Shown here in pieces: positions 4,299-28,732 of a stretch of 28,746 bases of DNA (position 1 is its first letter; each line of letters starts with the position of its first letter). The notes beneath the pieces were generated by a model. The model was not told the origin of the DNA. It worked only from the letters and a program-made list of their open reading frames with translations, and ran no database searches. Origin of the DNA: a virus (taxonomy: Duplodnaviria > Caudoviricetes); the IMG/VR virus record IMGVR_UViG_3300038314_001195, positions 1-28,746 of that record, one strand, 5' to 3'. The position numbers and the translations under genes were made by a program.

Positions 4299-4876
4299 TC
4301 TCTGCCCTCCTTGCTTGCCCTCAGGCTCTCGTCCCGCCATGCGGCGGGGATATTGTCGGCCGTACCATTCGCGGCCGTCTTCGGTGCCTTCGCGGCGATC
4401 CTCGCATCCCCGGCGAGTTCCGCTTGCCGGAGCGCTCGCAGTCGCCGCAGGTTGGCCGCCTCGAGCGCGGTGTCGACCTCTTGCCGACGCTCGGCCGTTA
4501 GCTCGCGAGCGCCGAACCACGCGCGAGCCTTCGCCAACTGGTCACCCTCGATCGCGTGCGTGACCTCTTCGGCCGTGGCGACTTGCCCGGCGAGGTCATA
4601 CCCGGCGATGCCCAGGCAGCGACCGATCGCGCTCGTCTCGCAGTTCTCGACGGCGCTCGTCTTGTTGATCCGGCTCGCTTGGCGTAGCTCTTCGGCGTGT
4701 CCCGTGGCGACGATCCGCCCGTCCTCGTCGAGCAGGACAGCGCGCATTAGGACGCGCTCGCCGTCGTCGACCAGGATCTCGGTCGTCAGTGTCCAGCTCG
4801 GCCGCTCCGCTCGGAACCTGCCGATCCGGCTTGCGACCGGTTCGTACTCTTTGCCGTGGATATTGATCGTGCTCAC
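4295..4876 (-). CDS. Putative ssDNA-annealing recombination protein (Rad52/Sak/Erf-like superfamily)
   Basis: GKEYEPVASRI, ATGHAEE and INKTSAVENCETSAIGR motifs; position between exonuclease and ssb. Confidence 0.6.
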   Translation of the reverse strand: MSTINIHGKEYEPVASRIGRFRAERPSWTLTTEILVDDGERVLMRAVLLDEDGRIVATGHAEELRQASRINKTSAVENCETSAIGRCLGIAGYDLAGQVATAEEVTHAIEGDQLAKARAWFGARELTAERRQEVDTALEAANLRRLRALRQAELAGDARIAAKAPKTAANGTADNIPAAWRDESLRASKEGRE

Positions 4877-5295
4877 TCGCTGTCCTCCAGTTCTGGGGTG
4901 TTGCGGCTCTTGATCAGCACGTCTTCACGGGCTAGAGCGGTCAGAATGCGGCGCTCTTGCTGCGTGAAACAGTCGCCGTCGTGAACGATGGCGAATAAGA
5001 CGTCCCCCACGCGATCACTCCAACCCCAGATCCAGCCGAGCCGGTAACGCCGCGGATACAGATCCTCGCCTCGGTGCGAGCGCTCCCTACATATTGAACA
5101 AACACCCTCGTATTGCGTGCTCACTTGCTTACCTCCTGCTTTGCTTTGGTCCATCGGAACGTGCGCCCGCCCGCGCTGATCCTTGTGTGCCTCTCGACGT
5201 TCCGGTTGCTCCGGGGCCGGGGGGGCCGGAGTCGTAAACATGTAGGCCAACTCGTTTGTGGTGAGCCAACCATCCCCTTCGTATTTCTTGCTCAC
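4873..5295 (-). CDS. Hypothetical protein with two in-frame starts (5295 and 5124); CxxC...H...C possible Zn site
   Basis: GGAGG RBS plus GTG is present in both copies of an 82-bp duplication; CSIC...HDGDC lies in the distal 83 aa. Confidence 0.55.
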   Translation of the reverse strand: MSKKYEGDGWLTTNELAYMFTTPAPPAPEQPERREAHKDQRGRAHVPMDQSKAGGKQVSTQYEGVCSICRERSHRGEDLYPRRYRLGWIWGWSDRVGDVLFAIVHDGDCFTQQERRILTALAREDVLIKSRNTPELEDSE

Positions 5296-5370
5296 TTGCT
5301 TACCTCCTGCTTTGCTTTGGTCCATCGGAACGTGCGCCCGCCCGCGCTGATCCTTGTGTGCCTCTCGACG
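5118..5370. repeat. 82-bp perfect direct repeat (5118..5199 and 5289..5370)
   Basis: Identical copies offset by 171 bp; the unit is the 3' end of the YqaJ gene plus the RBS and start of the next gene. Confidence 0.95.
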
Positions 5371-6248
5371 AGGTCATCGGGCGGCTCGAGCGCCTTCGTG
5401 ATCGCCTTGTAGTCGATCCGGGTCGATGCCTTGCGCGCTGACCACGTCACGCGCCCGACGCCTGCGGCCTCGATGCCTCGCGCCTCACCGATCCGCGTCA
5501 TCAATTGCGCCTTGGCTTCGCGCTCTTGTAGCTCGGCGAACTCGCGACGCTCTCGCCACTTCGAGTAGACGGCGAGCGCCTCGACATCGGCCTCGGTCGT
5601 GGCGGCTATCATCTCGCCCCCATCGGCTGCCGGGTATTGGCGCTCGGCTGCACCGTCGCGGACGCTCTCGCCGGTCGCCGCTGGTGCTCTCCCTGTCTCG
5701 ACGTGAGCGGCCCACCAGTCGACGACGTAGACGAACTCAGACGACGCCAGCTCGCGATCGAACGGGCGGCGATGGTACTCGATGACAGGCGCGAAGCCGC
5801 CGAGGCGGATCACGATGATACATAGCGTCTCGACCGGGCGATCGTTCGTCTCGAGGATCGAGCCCTGCCAGCGTACTTGCGCCCAGTGATAGCCCGGCGG
5901 CTCAGGCCATGACGCGAACGTGCATTTCACCTCGGTGATCGTCTTCGCTGCGGGGTCGTAGCCGTCAGGCGTCGCGCTCAAGTAGGGCAGCGCCGGGCAA
6001 GACAGCGTGCCGATTGGTTCGGGCCATCGCCCCGTCTCTTCCTCGTAGGCATCGAGTCCCATCTGTTCGAGCTCGCATCCGATCCGGACATGAAGAGACG
6101 CGCTCAGATCGTCGCCCTCGTAACTGCCCGTGACGACCTGCCATACCGCCAGCGGTGAGCGGTACGGGTGCTCGACGGCGGGCAGTATCGCCCCGACATC
6201 GGCCGAGCCGATCCGGCCTTGCCGTTCGGCGCTCCTATCCCTGTTCAT
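5292..6248 (-). CDS. YqaJ-like (lambda exonuclease family) viral recombination nuclease
   Basis: R..RIGSADVGAIL, GCELE, LSATPDG, EVKC and Y.WAQV..Q motifs. Confidence 0.9.
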   Translation of the reverse strand: MNRDRSAERQGRIGSADVGAILPAVEHPYRSPLAVWQVVTGSYEGDDLSASLHVRIGCELEQMGLDAYEEETGRWPEPIGTLSCPALPYLSATPDGYDPAAKTITEVKCTFASWPEPPGYHWAQVRWQGSILETNDRPVETLCIIVIRLGGFAPVIEYHRRPFDRELASSEFVYVVDWWAAHVETGRAPAATGESVRDGAAERQYPAADGGEMIAATTEADVEALAVYSKWRERREFAELQEREAKAQLMTRIGEARGIEAAGVGRVTWSARKASTRIDYKAITKALEPPDDLVERHTRISAGGRTFRWTKAKQEVSK

Positions 6249-6498
6249 TGTCGCCCCCTTCGGCGGCTTGCGCCTCGATCCAGTCGTCGAGGTCGGCCCG
6301 CTTGTAGCGGATGCAGCGCGATGAGTAGCGGTAGTACTTCGGCCCGGTGCCCTTTGATCGGCGTGCCTTCAATGTCGACGCTTCGACCCCCAGGTAGGCG
6401 GCCGCATCTCTGGGCGTCATCATGCCGGCCGAGTGAAGCACGCCGGCCGTTGACCCCGGCGGCGTCCGATGCTTCCGCCCTGTTCCTCCCTTCGCCAT
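6235..6498 (-). CDS. AlpA/Xis-like (MerR-type) HTH DNA-binding protein
   Basis: MTPRDAAAYLGVEASTLK..R..GTGPKY....IRYKRADLDDWI; GAGGTG RBS. Confidence 0.9.
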   Translation of the reverse strand: MAKGGTGRKHRTPPGSTAGVLHSAGMMTPRDAAAYLGVEASTLKARRSKGTGPKYYRYSSRCIRYKRADLDDWIEAQAAEGGDNEQG

Positions 6499-6527
6499 GT
6501 CGTCACCTCTTGCTATTTGGAGTTTCG

Positions 6528-6556
6528 TCCCTAACCCACTATCACCTACAAGTCAA
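6528..6556 (-). promoter_or_regulatory. Putative leftward early promoter
   Basis: TTGACT-17 bp-TAGGGA on the minus strand, upstream of the Xis-like gene. Confidence 0.5.
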
Positions 6557-6576
6557 CCGTGGTCACCCGTGGTAAC

Positions 6577-6605
6577 TTGCACACACCTTCCGCCCGTGCT
6601 ACCAC
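6577..6605 (+). promoter_or_regulatory. Putative rightward promoter (leaderless transcript)
   Basis: TTGCAC-17 bp-TACCAC with an extended TG; ATG lies 7 nt downstream with no SD. Confidence 0.45.
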
Positions 6606-6612
6606 TGACGCC

Positions 6613-6717
6613 ATGAAAGACACGATCCGATCATTACTCGCCCAGGCTGCCCGGATGACGGGCGCTCTGCTCTTCTTCGTCGGGTGCTTTTACGTCATCG
6701 GATGGTCGGTGCTATGA
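6613..6717 (+). CDS. 34-aa single-pass membrane peptide (not in ORF track)
   Basis: MKDTIRSLLAQAARMTGALLFFVGCFYVIGWSVL*; its TGA overlaps the ATG of the next gene (ATGA). Confidence 0.6.
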   Translation: MKDTIRSLLAQAARMTGALLFFVGCFYVIGWSVL

Positions 6718-7334
6718 AGACCTTTCGGGTACAGATACGGATCAGGAACAACCAACTGATCCAGCGCCGCGAGGAGCTTGGATTGACACAGCGAGCGCTC
6801 GGCGAGGCCAGCGGCGTCGATAGCAACACGATAAGCTCCCTCGAGTGCGTCAGATTGAGCCCGTTAAAGAAGCCGAGGCGATGGGAGAAGAGAAAGGATC
6901 CCGAATGGACGGCTGCAGCTCTTAGGCTTTCGGCCTTCTTCGGCGAGTCACCGGATACGCTGTTCCCGCGATCCGTGCTGAAGCTGAAGCGACCCGTGGC
7001 CGAGCGCGTGCTCGACGCCGAAGACCTGCACCAGTTGACAGCCGAGCAAAGCCCGATGCTGATCGACGAAGCCGCCGACCCGTCGCAACTCTTCGACGCG
7101 CACGAGCGAAGGCGATCACTCTGCCGCGCGCTTGCGACCCTTCCGCCGCGCGAAGAGTTGATCCTTCGTCAGCGCTTCGGCCTTGAAGAAGGCCAAGATC
7201 CCCAGACACGCGAGGATCTGGCGGAGGTCTGGGGTTTAACGCCTAACCGGATCCGCCAGCTTGAAGCGAAAGCGATCCGCAAGTTGCGACATCCGAAGAC
7301 CTCGGCCGACCTTCGGGATTTTTACGACGGATGA
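6714..7334 (+). CDS. XRE-family HTH fused to RpoD-like sigma-70 region 4
   Basis: N-terminus LIQRREELGLTQRALGEASGVDSNTISSLE; C-terminus LPPREELILRQRFGL...QTREDLAEVWGLTPNRIRQLEAKAIRKLRHP...LRDFYD; no sigma region 2. Confidence 0.85.
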   Translation: MKTFRVQIRIRNNQLIQRREELGLTQRALGEASGVDSNTISSLECVRLSPLKKPRRWEKRKDPEWTAAALRLSAFFGESPDTLFPRSVLKLKRPVAERVLDAEDLHQLTAEQSPMLIDEAADPSQLFDAHERRRSLCRALATLPPREELILRQRFGLEEGQDPQTREDLAEVWGLTPNRIRQLEAKAIRKLRHPKTSADLRDFYDG

Positions 7335-7377: not shown

Positions 7378-7914
7378 ATGAGAAAACCACCGACACCAGA
7401 CGAGCGGATCTTCGCCGTCATAGCCGACGGCGCTCACCTCACCGGCGAGATAGCCCGAGCGCTCAACCGATCCCGGTCGAGCCTATACAAGCGCCTTCGC
7501 CGCATGGTCGACGCGCGAAAGCTGCGCTATGTAGACCAGTCGGTCCACTACCGAGGCGGGTATTACCTCACAGATCAGCCGGCGATCAGGCGCACCGAAG
7601 GCCCGATCGTCGTGCTCGACGCCATCGCGGCAGGGTGTCACACATGGACAGAGATCCGAGCTCGCACGGGAGGAACGGGTATCACTCACCACGTGAATGC
7701 GCTGATCAGGGAAGGCCTGATCCGCAAGATCGACCACCAGCTGTACGTGTGCAACGGTCGCCCGGTGACGGTGAAGCCGAAGAAGGCCACGAGCGCCGGC
7801 CCTCCGCCCGTATACGAGCGCCCAGGCGCCTACTATCACGACGCCTTCGAGGCGATGGTTGAAGAGGCCGGCAACGCTAGACGTGAGCGCCTGATCCGCC
7901 TCTTCGGCCACTAG
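7378..7914 (+). CDS. Tandem winged-HTH DNA-binding protein
   Basis: Two similar units: IFAVIADG..LTGEIARALNRSRSSLYKRLRRMV and VLDAIAAG..TWTEIRARTG....THHVNALIREGLIRK. Confidence 0.75.
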   Translation: MRKPPTPDERIFAVIADGAHLTGEIARALNRSRSSLYKRLRRMVDARKLRYVDQSVHYRGGYYLTDQPAIRRTEGPIVVLDAIAAGCHTWTEIRARTGGTGITHHVNALIREGLIRKIDHQLYVCNGRPVTVKPKKATSAGPPPVYERPGAYYHDAFEAMVEEAGNARRERLIRLFGH

Positions 7915-25093: not shown

Positions 25094-25122
25094 ACGGTAA
25101 CCCGTGCGTAATAGAATTACAA
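25094..25122 (-). promoter_or_regulatory. Putative portal/head-tail operon promoter
   Basis: TTGTAA-17 bp-TACCGT, 5 nt before the portal GTG; no SD. Confidence 0.5.
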
Positions 25123-25179
25123 CGTCACTGTAATTTTACACCACTAGGTTCGTTTGTTCTATTCGTTGTCTGTTTTATG

Positions 25180-25207
25180 TTGACACAGGAAACAGGGCTG
25201 TTATGAT
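25180..25207 (+). promoter_or_regulatory. Strong sigma-70-type promoter of the moron
   Basis: TTGACA-16 bp-TATGAT with an extended TG, preceded by a T-rich UP-like tract. Confidence 0.8.
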
Positions 25208-25680: not shown

Positions 25681-25883
25681 CCGGCGGCCGAGGGCGCCCG
25701 CCTATCCCCGAGGAGGTGAGGCGCTCGCGGCTGCTCCGGCTCCGCTGCACCGTGGCCGAGCTGGACGCCTACCGCGACGCCGCCGAGCGTGCCGGCGTGA
25801 CGCTGTCCGAATGGACCCGCGTCACTCTGGGCGTAGCTTGCGACGAGGTCGCCGCCTCACCTTCTGAGTCCTGCCAAGATTAG
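25677..25883 (+). CDS. Ribbon-helix-helix (MobC/CopG-like) DNA-binding protein
   Basis: GAGGAGG RBS + GTG; GRGRPP...LLRLRCTVAELDAYRDAAERAGVTLSEWTR. Confidence 0.75.
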   Translation: MTGGRGRPPIPEEVRRSRLLRLRCTVAELDAYRDAAERAGVTLSEWTRVTLGVACDEVAASPSESCQD

Positions 25884-27753
25884 CCGAGGCGTCCCGCCTC
25901 GCGCCTCCGCTGGAGTAGCCTCCGGCGTGCAGCTTCCTACCGAACTTCGCGCACAAGTGAAGACAGCCACCGTCGGCGATGGCGAGGTCATCATGGGAGC
26001 CGGCGCCTGACGGTGCTTGAATCATCCCTTCGTGTTCGCAGAGTCCGCCGATCTCCGCGACGGCGTAGCGCGAGCGGTGCGGCACCGTCGGGCCGAGCGG
26101 GAGGATCTCGCCGGTGACGCTGTCGAAGCCTGTCCCCTCGATCGCTTGCGACAGCGCGGCGAGGTAGGCGCTCCGAGTCTGGGCGCCGGTGTAGATGCCG
26201 GCACGCAGCTTGCGCGCACCCTTGCCAGCCTGCGGCCGGCGGTCGGCTATCTGCTCGGAGTAGAGCCCGGACTTCGTGCCAACCCTCAGGTTGTGCCGGT
26301 TGCGTAGGTGGTCTAGCAAGTCCTTGCCCGTGCCAGCGTTCCGCTCGACGGCGATCAGGTAGCGCGACGGGCGACGGGCGGCGCCCTTGCCGAGTAGCTT
26401 CTCGAGCACGTGGATCAAGCTGTCGGCCATCTCCGACGCTAAGCACTTGCCGTGTATCTCGGCGACGTACTGACAGGTCAGCGCCGAGCGGAAGACCGCC
26501 GCCGACCTGTCGACGCCGTGCTTGGCGGCGGTGTCGACGAAGACGATCAACTGCTCGTTGAGCGCGCGCACTTGCTCGCCGGTCATCCAGTAACTGACGG
26601 AGTGCAAGGTCCCGAGGCGGTAGCGCTCGATCGGGTCGGAGCATTGCGCGAGCGCCAGCTCGACGGCGTCGGGAGATAGCCAGCGCTTGACCTCCGTCTC
26701 TGCGAAGGCCTCTTCGATCTCTTCGGGATTCTCGGCGAGGTTCAACTTCCGCTGGTGGCTCGTACCGGTGAAGCGTTCGCGACGCCTGAACGCGACTTGC
26801 TCCGGGTCGAGGCCGAGCTCGCGCTCGTCGTCGACGGTGCCAGCTGGCAGAGTCGCGACGAACTTCGGCGAGTGCATCGCCTCGAAGCCCGGCGTGCCAA
26901 CGGCCAGCCGCTTCAAGGGATCGAGATACCAAGGCCAAAAGAAGGCTCGGCGGAACGATCCCGACGGCGGGTCCTGCGCGGTCAGTAGATACTCCTCGGC
27001 CATCCAGGCGGTTCGACTCGTCGGCGGATTCGACTCGGCGACGATCCAGCCGTTCGGGCCGACGGCCTTGCCGGCCGCGCTGAAGACGATCTCCGGCTCA
27101 TGGTAGGCGCGCGGCTCAGTGAGGTGGAGTACCATTAAGCTCTGGCCACGTCCGAGAGTCGAACTCACGCGAGCGTGCTGCCCTGCGGTATCCATTGAGT
27201 ACCTTGAGCCATTGCGGAAGCGGAAGCGATAGCCGACGCGGAGCACAGACGGATCCTCGCCGTCGGCCAGGCCGAGCCATTGCCGGGGCATCCGGCGCAA
27301 CGCGAAGAGGATCTGGTCGATCGCGCCTTCGAGCAGCGCGGCCTTCTGTGCCTGATAGACCGAGAGCGCCGAGACGCCCGGCAGGCGTAGCACGGTGTGA
27401 AGGATCAACGCATAGCACAGCGAGGAGAAGCGCACGCGCCGCGACTTGCAGACGATGTCCGAGCCGGGGATCGGCTGGCCTGCGTCGTCGTATCTGAAGG
27501 CCGTGCGCCGGTCGAGGTAGTCGATCTGCATCGCGTTGAGTTCGTCGCCGCCTACCGACCTCGGCGATCCGCTGTCGTCGAACTCGCTGATGTGAGGCCA
27601 GAAGACGAAGCGCCGGACGAACTCGGCAGGGTCGGCGGGTATCGGCTCGACCTCTTCAAGCTCGCGCGGCTTCTGTCGAGCTTGCTGATACTTCAGGACC
27701 TCGAGCGGGTCGGTACCGCTGATCAGTCGCTGCAAGGCGGCGAAGTCCATCAC
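25822..27753 (-). CDS. terL: Terminase large subunit
   Basis: IVCKSRRVRFSS (Walker A region), LHLTE (Walker B), VAESNP (motif C), IVFVDTA, AVERN and HDDLAIA nuclease motifs. Confidence 0.9.
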   Translation of the reverse strand: MMDFAALQRLISGTDPLEVLKYQQARQKPRELEEVEPIPADPAEFVRRFVFWPHISEFDDSGSPRSVGGDELNAMQIDYLDRRTAFRYDDAGQPIPGSDIVCKSRRVRFSSLCYALILHTVLRLPGVSALSVYQAQKAALLEGAIDQILFALRRMPRQWLGLADGEDPSVLRVGYRFRFRNGSRYSMDTAGQHARVSSTLGRGQSLMVLHLTEPRAYHEPEIVFSAAGKAVGPNGWIVAESNPPTSRTAWMAEEYLLTAQDPPSGSFRRAFFWPWYLDPLKRLAVGTPGFEAMHSPKFVATLPAGTVDDERELGLDPEQVAFRRRERFTGTSHQRKLNLAENPEEIEEAFAETEVKRWLSPDAVELALAQCSDPIERYRLGTLHSVSYWMTGEQVRALNEQLIVFVDTAAKHGVDRSAAVFRSALTCQYVAEIHGKCLASEMADSLIHVLEKLLGKGAARRPSRYLIAVERNAGTGKDLLDHLRNRHNLRVGTKSGLYSEQIADRRPQAGKGARKLRAGIYTGAQTRSAYLAALSQAIEGTGFDSVTGEILPLGPTVPHRSRYAVAEIGGLCEHEGMIQAPSGAGSHDDLAIADGGCLHLCAKFGRKLHAGGYSSGGARRDASANLGRTQKVRRRPRRKLRPE

Positions 27754-28157
27754 CCCGATCCGGTCTTGATCATCCGCTCCGCGATCGCCGCCTTAAGCGC
27801 GACCTCGGCCGCGCGTGCGTCGCCCGTCGTCGCGACTCCTCGCTCGATGCGGTCGAGCAGTAGCTCGCGGATCTCGGTGACCTCCGGGCATTCGTTCGGC
27901 GATGGCTTCACGACCTCGACGATCGGCGCGGCGATCATCAGCTCGGCCTTGGCTTGCGCCTTGGCCTTCTTCGTTCGGCCAGGCCGCCACTTGCCGCCGT
28001 GCCGATGACACACGAATGACTTCACGGTGTTGAGTCCGACGGGCACACCTTGATCAGCGAGCCAGGCTTGCACCATCGGCGCGGAGTCGCCGCGGGCGGC
28101 GCGGCGGAGCGTGTCTGCTGTTAGGCCTGCGAGTTCGATCTTCGAGCGTCTTGCCAT
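27750..28157 (-). CDS. Putative terminase small subunit
   Basis: N-terminal MARRSKIE plus HTH-like region; coupled (ATGA) to terL. Confidence 0.7.
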   Translation of the reverse strand: MARRSKIELAGLTADTLRRAARGDSAPMVQAWLADQGVPVGLNTVKSFVCHRHGGKWRPGRTKKAKAQAKAELMIAAPIVEVVKPSPNECPEVTEIRELLLDRIERGVATTGDARAAEVALKAAIAERMIKTGSG

Positions 28158-28165
28158 AATGGGCC

Positions 28166-28194
28166 ATGATAACTTGGCCCATTGTGGCCCACAA
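28166..28194 (-). promoter_or_regulatory. Putative terS promoter overlapped by TGGGCCA repeats
   Basis: TTGTGG-17 bp-TATCAT, 8 nt before the ATG; no SD. Confidence 0.5.
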
Positions 28195-28341: not shown

Positions 28342-28401
28342 ACACTTCAGGTTCTAACGGGTAACACTTCAGGTTCTAACCGGGAACACTTCAGGTTCTA
28401 A
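28342..28401. repeat. Three 16-bp direct repeats ACACTTCAGGTTCTAA with 22-bp period
   Basis: Exact copies at 28342, 28364 and 28386. Confidence 0.92.
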
Positions 28402-28732
28402 TTCAACCGGTATTGAATGATTCCGAACACTTACAGAACACCGACCGTGAACGGAACGGAACGGTAGTGTAGTACGGCCCTGAGTGGGTCCGCTTGAGCT
28501 ACCCCACTCGGGCCTTGTCCGGGATAGCTCATCACGATGGCGCTGGAATTTTGAACCCGAAAAATCGGCGCCTCGAGAAAACCAAAGTCGTCGAGGTTTT
28601 GCGTAGACGCACACAGAACGCGCGAGCGCTTCAAGGTATCGTCTGGTATGCGTCAGGCCATGGCCGGCCGCTACGCGGCCAGCACGTGCCCTCCTTGGTC
28701 ACGTTTCTGGGCTACTCATGCACAGAAAAGTG

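Follow-up and report, generated by a model that had tools for sequence, protein, structure and literature searches.

An uncultured-phage family of regulators joining an XRE-type domain to a primary-sigma region 4

The gene at 6714..7334 (plus strand) of the window, by which we mean the whole 28,746-nucleotide stretch of viral DNA analyzed here, encodes a protein of a large regulator family from uncultured phages for which we found no studied representative, and in which an XRE/Cro-type domain is joined to a copy of region 4 of a primary sigma factor. The reading frame is intact, with an unbroken translation of 206 residues. By Pfam, NCBIfam and PDB sequence searches, together with an AlphaFold2 model (mean pLDDT 91.8, pTM 0.64, from a 43-row alignment), the protein divides into an N-domain (residues 1-112, 6714..7049), a linker (about residues 113-122, 7050..7079) and a sigma-derived domain (residues 123-206, 7080..7331), all on the plus strand. 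The N-domain has an XRE/Cro-type fold, with an HTH_3 match at residues 16-44 (E 5.5e-8, 33 bits against a cut-off of 23) and, in the model, a strand at 4-9, five XRE helices (13-21, 26-33, 37-44, 67-76 and 80-83), a strand at 95-100 and a helix at 102-112; the HTH_3 score and the model thus place it with the five-helix lambda-repressor-like domains of the XRE/Cro-C1 class. SinR, CylR2, the 434 repressor and HipB all match a profile of this N-domain at E 6e-4 to 0.04, but the fusion protein differs from such regulators in its flanking β-strands and in carrying sigma4 where they have a peptidase or oligomerization domain, and Pfam finds none of the S24 peptidase domain of CI-like repressors. The linker is predicted to be flexible (pLDDT below 50 at residues 115-120), and beyond it the model shows the helices of sigma4 with their tail.

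The sigma-derived domain comprises a pre-region-4 helix, regions 4.1 and 4.2 and an RpoD-type tail. Sigma70_r4 matches residues 139-193 (E 9.1e-14), and in the PDB sequence search residues 132-205 align with residues 540-612 of E. coli sigma70, tail included, which bears out the preliminary description of a C terminus of about 70 residues that follows RpoD region 4 to its very end. Compared with region 4 of RpoD/SigA (PF04545) the protein is ∼50% identical over 70 residues, including the tail, and its predicted sigma4 fold superposes on chimeras of SigA region 4 and the flap tip at 1.6-2.0 Å rmsd over 70-75 columns. The region-2 model is absent from the Pfam scan, and the best NCBIfam matches, which are RpoD models, cover only residues about 119-205 (E 3.6e-19; 69 bits against a cut-off of 572), so that the absence of region 2, also claimed earlier, holds. 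TIGR02937 scores above its cut-off (57 against 43 bits), over residues 111-193 alone, and this C-terminal pass probably accounts for the automatic "sigma factor" names given to the family.

Measured against the sigma-70 family, the protein has the region 4 helix-turn-helix with its core-binding patch, whereas region 2, which serves core binding and −10 melting, is absent here and is listed (as PF04542) for 0/57 homologues, and the −35 base readers Arg-584 and Glu-585 are Pro and Asn. The recognition helix starts T-P-N-R (7239..7250, plus strand) where sigma70 has T583-R584-E585-R586, placing Pro-177 and Asn-178 at the positions of Arg-584 and Glu-585 as the preliminary description had read them, in a register that uses a one-residue insertion printed in the alignments to two other RpoD/SigA chains. 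Relative to RpoD/SigA the protein has an XRE head instead of regions 1.2, 2 and 3.0, and Arg-584 and Glu-585 are variable in its family; with those regions absent it cannot open a −10 element. We rejected the assignment as a true sigma factor on the absence of region 2. The possibility of a frameshifted or truncated rpoD fragment was likewise rejected, given an intact fusion in 130/130 proteins and a purifying pattern of substitution in close pairs.

The family was sampled with the N-domain alone, so that sigma4 played no part in selection. All 57 hits of the N-domain profile (query included), in a search that covered proteins of at least 196 residues, list PF04545, and none lists region 2. 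A scan with the N-domain of the subfamily confirmed 126 of 150 stretches, and the best 80 of the 126 were used; 74 of these 80 loci, the remaining six having no complete ORF, were pooled with 55 profile hits (one N-truncated hit left out) and the query. In this pool sigma4 is present in 130/130 complete proteins. The XRE plus sigma4 architecture is thus conserved and apparently an obligate fusion, and the domain-architecture search proposed at the outset, for a helix-turn-helix and region 4 without region 2, leads to a large family of uncultured phages. Searching with the single protein returned six proteins, the query among them, and found no relatives in the viral contigs, whereas an alignment-based scan of the same contigs confirmed at least 548 of 599 pattern matches; the best 80 of these comprise 69 full-length matches, six true sigma70 genes and five partial ones. 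In the ESM Atlas we found ten cluster sets of 183-212 residues (scores 0.92-0.96) with 75-100% viral members, and the top BFVD match is a 200-residue protein of an uncultured marine virus (E 2.7e-12). No cultured-phage record covered 80% of the fusion protein (0/31 and 0/38), and querying cultured phages with the N-domain gave no match.

On chromosomes, relatives were present in 4 of 401 genomes sampled in the phylum of G001 and in none of those sampled in the phyla of G002 and G003 (0/301 each); in all four the RFG loop and RHP tail are missing. A tree of the sigma4 domain (73 rows, 75 columns) was unresolved and did not tell one origin from several. No studied family member turned up in the titles and abstract openings of a mainly open-access literature, and a term search within the text available from PMC9429907 returned nothing on region-4-only proteins.

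Several related arrangements were seen in the course of this survey. Proteins P0006-P0027 form a divergent subfamily of 223-241 residues that has the XRE plus RpoD-type sigma4 layout, with a tryptophan-rich motif in a different linker. Two 291-residue viral proteins (L042 and L047) carry an RpoD-type sigma4 with neither the family N-domain nor region 2, and represent another sigma4 fusion. In the four loci from the phylum of G001 (L243:5974-12028, from G011; L244:6590-11297; L245:1471-5986; L246:427-4979) a family relative of 185-208 residues stands fourth in a conserved gene run, the first three genes of which encode, in L243, a TrlF-like ABC ATPase, a histidine-kinase-like protein and a receiver protein; L244, L245 and L246 have genes of similar size with like N termini. 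A sigma54 activator lies downstream in L243, which is flanked by IetAS-like and TM0106-like genes, and WYL genes flank three of the four loci. This run may be an undescribed defense or signaling module; among the papers listed by a literature search none mentions TrlF.

We assessed the conservation of individual residues in N-domain-selected relatives reduced at 70% identity to 33 sequences, with 39 sigma70s for comparison. The core-binding residues of sigma70, Glu-555, Arg-562, Phe-563, Ile-565 and Leu-598 (PMC4943231), are all present in the fusion protein and are kept in 28, 32, 29, 26 and 32 of the 33 relatives, respectively; Leu-607, which contacts the flap from the H5 tail (PMC2988021), is kept in the fusion protein and is kept or conservatively changed in 32/33. 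The DNA-contact residues Arg-554, Thr-572, Arg-586, Arg-588, Gln-589 and Lys-593 are retained in 28-32 of 33, most contacts to the DNA backbone being kept, and the activator face is also well represented (Arg-596 in 31, Lys-597 in 25 and Arg-603 in 28). For several residues conservation is slightly below that in the sigma70s (p 0.017 for Glu-555; p 0.003 for Ile-565 and Thr-583), and the window's copy has lost DNA contacts beyond most relatives (L573R, R584P and E585N), as well as Arg-603. The core-binding residues may be conserved for the fold rather than for flap contact. Judged from these patterns of residues, the sigma4 domain of the family seems to have kept contact with polymerase as well as with DNA while reading bases more loosely.

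That looser reading centers on the two residues that in sigma70 read −31 (Arg-584) and −33 (Glu-585) of the −35 element (PMC2613000). Arg-584 is kept in 21/33 relatives against 39/39 sigma70s (p 2e-5) and Glu-585 in 27/33 against 39/39 (p 0.007); in the unreduced sets the counts are 35 and 42 of 56 relatives and 87 and 88 of 88 sigma70s. Within the window's own 90% cluster Pro-584 is found in 10 of 11 copies, whereas Glu-585 is present in 4 of these 11 copies, which are 92-99% identical. Position 584 is the most changed of residues 140-204, with 15 non-synonymous changes in 35 independent close pairs (the next, residue 198, has 14). In the same pairs the helix at 179-194 shows a twofold excess of synonymous (0.22) over non-synonymous (0.11) change, although residues 179-187 served as the search pattern for loci L001-L080 and their conservation is thereby inflated; residues 36-41, in the XRE helix, show a non-synonymous value of 0.22. 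Base reading thus appears to be relaxed or diversifying across the family, with the canonical Arg-Glu pair still the commonest state, and TPNR is one member's variant rather than a defining trait. Because the Arg-Glu pair is kept by most relatives and Glu-585 is polymorphic among near-identical copies, the altered helix, which the preliminary description had taken as the key feature, falls to the level of variation between members. The counts given above for Arg-584, Glu-585 and the close copies also led us to reject TPNR as a retuned specificity code of the family.

Contact with polymerase was approached by predicting a complex of residues 118-206 with residues 831-1057 of the E. coli β subunit. 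The complex scored 0.47, which is weak support, against 0.00 for the best of three controls; the runs agreed in at least 92% of contacts, with a partner pLDDT of at least 74. The mark that this score passes is reached by 116 of 157 solved pairs and 2 of 215 mismatched pairs, but only 18 of the solved pairs that reached it, together with both mismatches, scored 0.60 or less, and since solved sigma4-flap structures exist the pass may reflect likeness to them. The proposal that the sigma4 mimic engages the β-flap accordingly gains from the retained core-binding residues and from the complex, to the extent that the latter reports more than this likeness. Summed over all readings that involve it, we consider docking on the flap in some form fairly probable.

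A 34-residue hydrophobic ORF (6613..6717, plus strand), without a Pfam or PHROG match but kept in 4/4 close relatives, overlaps the ATG of the fusion gene with its stop codon, and the two are likely translationally coupled. Upstream is a putative rightward promoter (6577..6605, plus strand; TTGCAC, 17 bp, TGn-TACCAC) with an extended −10 and no −7T, which was not called in the consensus scan; its TTGC and its −10 region are kept in 4/4 relatives. Back to back with it stands a putative leftward −35 (6551..6556, minus strand; TTGACT, or TTGACA in L237 and L238) that would serve the replication operon, which is headed by a divergent HTH_17 (excisionase/Cro-like) gene (6235..6498, minus strand) and continues with RecE-like, SSB and DnaB genes. 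The 34-residue ORF and the fusion gene form a short rightward unit divergent from replication and recombination genes. The four close relatives share the small ORF and the rightward promoter, whereas the leftward gene and promoter are swapped in two; a comparison of 6235-6580 with L237 and L238 indicates that near-identical phages exchange the HTH_17 gene together with its promoter, as one module. The winged-helix gene downstream (7378..7914, plus strand) is not a fixed partner, because in L237 a C5 methylase gene takes its place. Elsewhere in the operon the RecE-like gene ends in a duplicated stretch (4873-5412), with a 150-residue ORF that repeats its own N-terminal peptide, as either a real duplication or an assembly artifact. 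The putative promoters of this region, in the window and its close relatives, have TTG, 17 bp and TA and are without −7T, a lack described as common in Alphaproteobacteria (PMC8407463), which is a weak hint from promoter sequence at an alphaproteobacterial host.

Across 48 representative loci, with genes called by a crude ORF picker, the upstream neighbor of the fusion gene is co-directional in 40/47 and divergent in 7/47. The commonest neighbors are DNA polymerase, exonuclease, endonuclease, helicases and primase, and replication or recombination genes lie near the fusion gene in 27/48 loci. This mostly co-directional placement is unlike that of a typical divergent immunity repressor; the CI-like layout is seen in the window but in only those seven relatives, and the S24 domain is missing. 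A terL gene lies within the fetched flanks in 7/48 loci at no fixed offset, and immediately next (+1) in 1/48. In L096 a small helix-turn-helix ORF nearby resembled the N-domain profile only as HTH proteins in general do.

Among known systems, that of T4 AsiA/MotA, in which a phage DNA-binding function takes the −35 place of host sigma4 and host region 2 is kept (PMC2988021, PMC7403470), comes closest in the outcome proposed here. In T4, however, AsiA remodels the host sigma4 and MotA binds H5, whereas the fusion protein is itself a sigma4 homologue. AsiA or MotA homologues were found neither for the fusion protein nor among the 22 other window ORFs scanned or 45 neighbor clusters, and because the AsiA-like remodeler is absent from these searches the term sigma appropriation, in its T4 sense, does not carry over. 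T4 gp33, P23-45 gp39 and Xp10 P7 target the β-flap or the sigma4 site, and none is described as an XRE-sigma4 fusion in the available text of the two sources on them (PMC7403470, PMC7824862); gp33 works with a phage sigma, and PDB sequence searches with the fusion protein and with its N-domain matched none of the three. GafA of RcGTA and GafY/GafZ of CcGTA are phage-derived proteins with a sigma-like helix-turn-helix that contact polymerase and serve the degenerate −35 promoters of particle genes (PMC9638019, PMC11150451), but GafA binds omega and GafY binds RpoD domains 3-4, and the sigma likeness of the Gaf proteins is tentative. The RinA/ArpU late activators of Gram-positive phages have a C-terminal part that resembles sigma region 4 (PMC3152322); theirs is a limited likeness, unlike the near-RpoD sequence here, and the fusion protein has no RinA/ArpU match in Pfam, PHROG or NCBIfam and no fixed position directly before terS. 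Hence the protein is neither a sigma factor nor an AsiA/MotA system, though it may reach a similar end.

The reading we favor, tentatively and at a little under an even chance, is that the fusion protein acts as a DNA-anchored substitute for sigma4 on the β-flap, activating phage promoters together with host region 2 and with relaxed reading of −31. In this scheme the XRE head would attach to an operator on the phage DNA, the sigma4 copy would dock on the host β-flap in place of the host's own region 4 (a step for which the predicted complex lends weak support), opening of the −10 element would remain with host region 2, and phage promoters with a weak −35 would be switched on. That an operator is bound, that host sigma4 gives way, that the effect is activation and which promoters are the targets are all points that we infer. 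The broader proposition, that a widespread phage family swaps host sigma domain 4 in trans to form a hybrid holoenzyme (host sigma2 with phage sigma4) whose −35 reading is retuned at Arg-584 and Glu-585, we regard as doubtful; if true, it would amount to one-protein promoter redirection unlike AsiA/MotA, gp33/gp55 or gp39. The main difficulty for a sigma4 substitute is that an untethered copy must out-compete a host sigma4 that region 2 tethers in cis, and the divergence of the unit from a replication operon, here and in 7/47 relatives, is the classic position of a repressor.

Candidate targets lie before the putative terS and the portal gene, where the hexamers had been cited in favor of redirected transcription. 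A weak promoter before the putative terS (28153..28194, minus strand; TTGTGG-17-TATCAT) has a 14-bp inverted repeat flanking its −10, and a weak promoter-like site before a Mu-type portal gene (25094..25138, minus strand; TTGTAA-17-TACCGT) has a 10-bp inverted repeat over its −35 side. The hexamers are present as described, but the sites score only 8/12 (TTGTGG, at 28194) and 7/12 (TTGTAA, at 25122), so that neither passes the 9/12 consensus scan, and the seven sites of this loose form in the window are no more than chance would give (11.1 ± 3.7 in 100 shuffles). Both retain G at −33, the base of Glu-585, and lose C at −31, which fits loss of Arg-584 only. In a crude pooled test across family phages residue 584 did not covary with the −31 base, C standing at −31 in 11/22 sites where the protein has Arg-584 and in 17/33 where it does not. 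Weak −35 boxes are in any case typical of ordinary activator-dependent promoters (PMC11150451), and the two hexamers are not diagnostic for action of the fusion protein.

The packaging region has features of its own. The terS and terL labels derive from position: neither the putative terL (25822-27753, 643 residues) nor terS (27750-28157, 135 residues) matches Pfam or PHROG, and the viral scan found no terL relatives, so that these genes appear to form a very divergent packaging module beside the Mu-type portal. The 14-bp inverted repeat (28153-28188, 93%) takes in the terS start codon and could act as an operator or form a hairpin in the RNA; transcription from here would leave almost no leader. 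Three tandem 22-bp direct repeats upstream (28342-28407) may be packaging sites or iteron-like sites. Just one strong consensus promoter is present in the region (25180-25207, plus strand; 11/12, extended −10); it sits in a small insert between terL and portal and heads away from the portal, toward the terL end.

Other readings divide according to whether they need the polymerase. A two-headed repressor would dispense with it, the XRE domain holding an operator and sigma4 gripping the adjacent −35, so that the promoter is occluded. The divergence from the HTH_17 gene with back-to-back −35 elements, seen in the window and in L082, L085 and L095, suits such a protein, as do the conserved DNA-contact residues and the variation of both recognition helices in close pairs, and the sigma4-like part of RinA is itself thought not to act as a sigma (PMC3152322). 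We nevertheless hold repression to be unlikely, since it leaves the retained core-binding patch and RpoD tail unexplained, most members sit inside operons, and the flap complex did receive its weak support. That support and the conserved flap patch would serve equally an inhibitor that docks on the flap and either displaces host sigma4 or plugs the RNA exit channel, turning off −35-dependent promoters and sparing extended −10 phage promoters, of which the fusion gene's own putative promoter has the form. The sigma4-targeting phage factors in the part of PMC7403470 that reviews them all inhibit −10/−35 promoters, and gp39, P7 and AsiA alone shut off −35-dependent promoters likewise; but unless the inhibition were local neither the conserved DNA-contact face nor a specific XRE head would be needed, and we rate inhibition as quite unlikely, below repression. 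A decoy that sequesters the host's anti-sigma factors or class II activators, or the proteins with which rival phages bind sigma4, would explain the well conserved activator face, and the structural matches include solved complexes of sigma4 with partners of this kind; the DNA-backbone residues and a head fused in every member (130/130) would then be needless, and this role seems to us improbable, marginally more so than the antiterminator discussed below.

A Q-like antiterminator would be loaded from its operator onto the flap once host sigma4 has been ejected, and would afterwards travel with polymerase through elongation. A genuine sigma4 in that place would be expected to hinder the exit of RNA, not to help it, and the fusion gene has no fixed position before late genes, so that this too is improbable, more so than inhibition. 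In its favor the flap is free after promoter escape (PMC2988021), which removes the competition with host sigma4, and GafZ, with its sigma-like helix-turn-helix, binds between −10 and −35 and antiterminates (PMC11150451); the occurrence of terL in the fetched flanks of seven loci and the inverted repeat around the terS −10 point the same way. Finally, the protein could be half of a two-subunit sigma factor with its region-2 half encoded elsewhere in the phage. A region-2 profile found nothing in 136 family loci, searched over flanks of up to 8-10 kb, although it detected all six true sigma70 genes in the non-family loci, and none of the 45 commonest neighbor clusters is a region-2 protein, one 52-residue ORF matching the region-4 part only. 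The window's genome is 41% complete, and a profile derived from group 1/2 sigmas could miss a region 2 that has diverged, but with an adjacent region-2 gene in 0/136 loci a split sigma is very improbable. With no region-2 partner nearby, the sigma4 substitute that we favor would have to take its −10 recognition from the host sigma.

Hundreds of marine, freshwater and other uncultured phages thus carry a gene of this family, for which the usual automatic label "RNA polymerase sigma factor" is wrong, and the TPNR change in the window's copy matters less than was first thought. Even if the protein proves to be a repressor, this is a large family of regulators for which no characterized member was found. 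If instead it binds the flap, a DNA-anchored phage protein is able to provide sigma domain 4 in trans, which would be a novel means of redirecting bacterial transcription and a natural model on which to build programmable activators.
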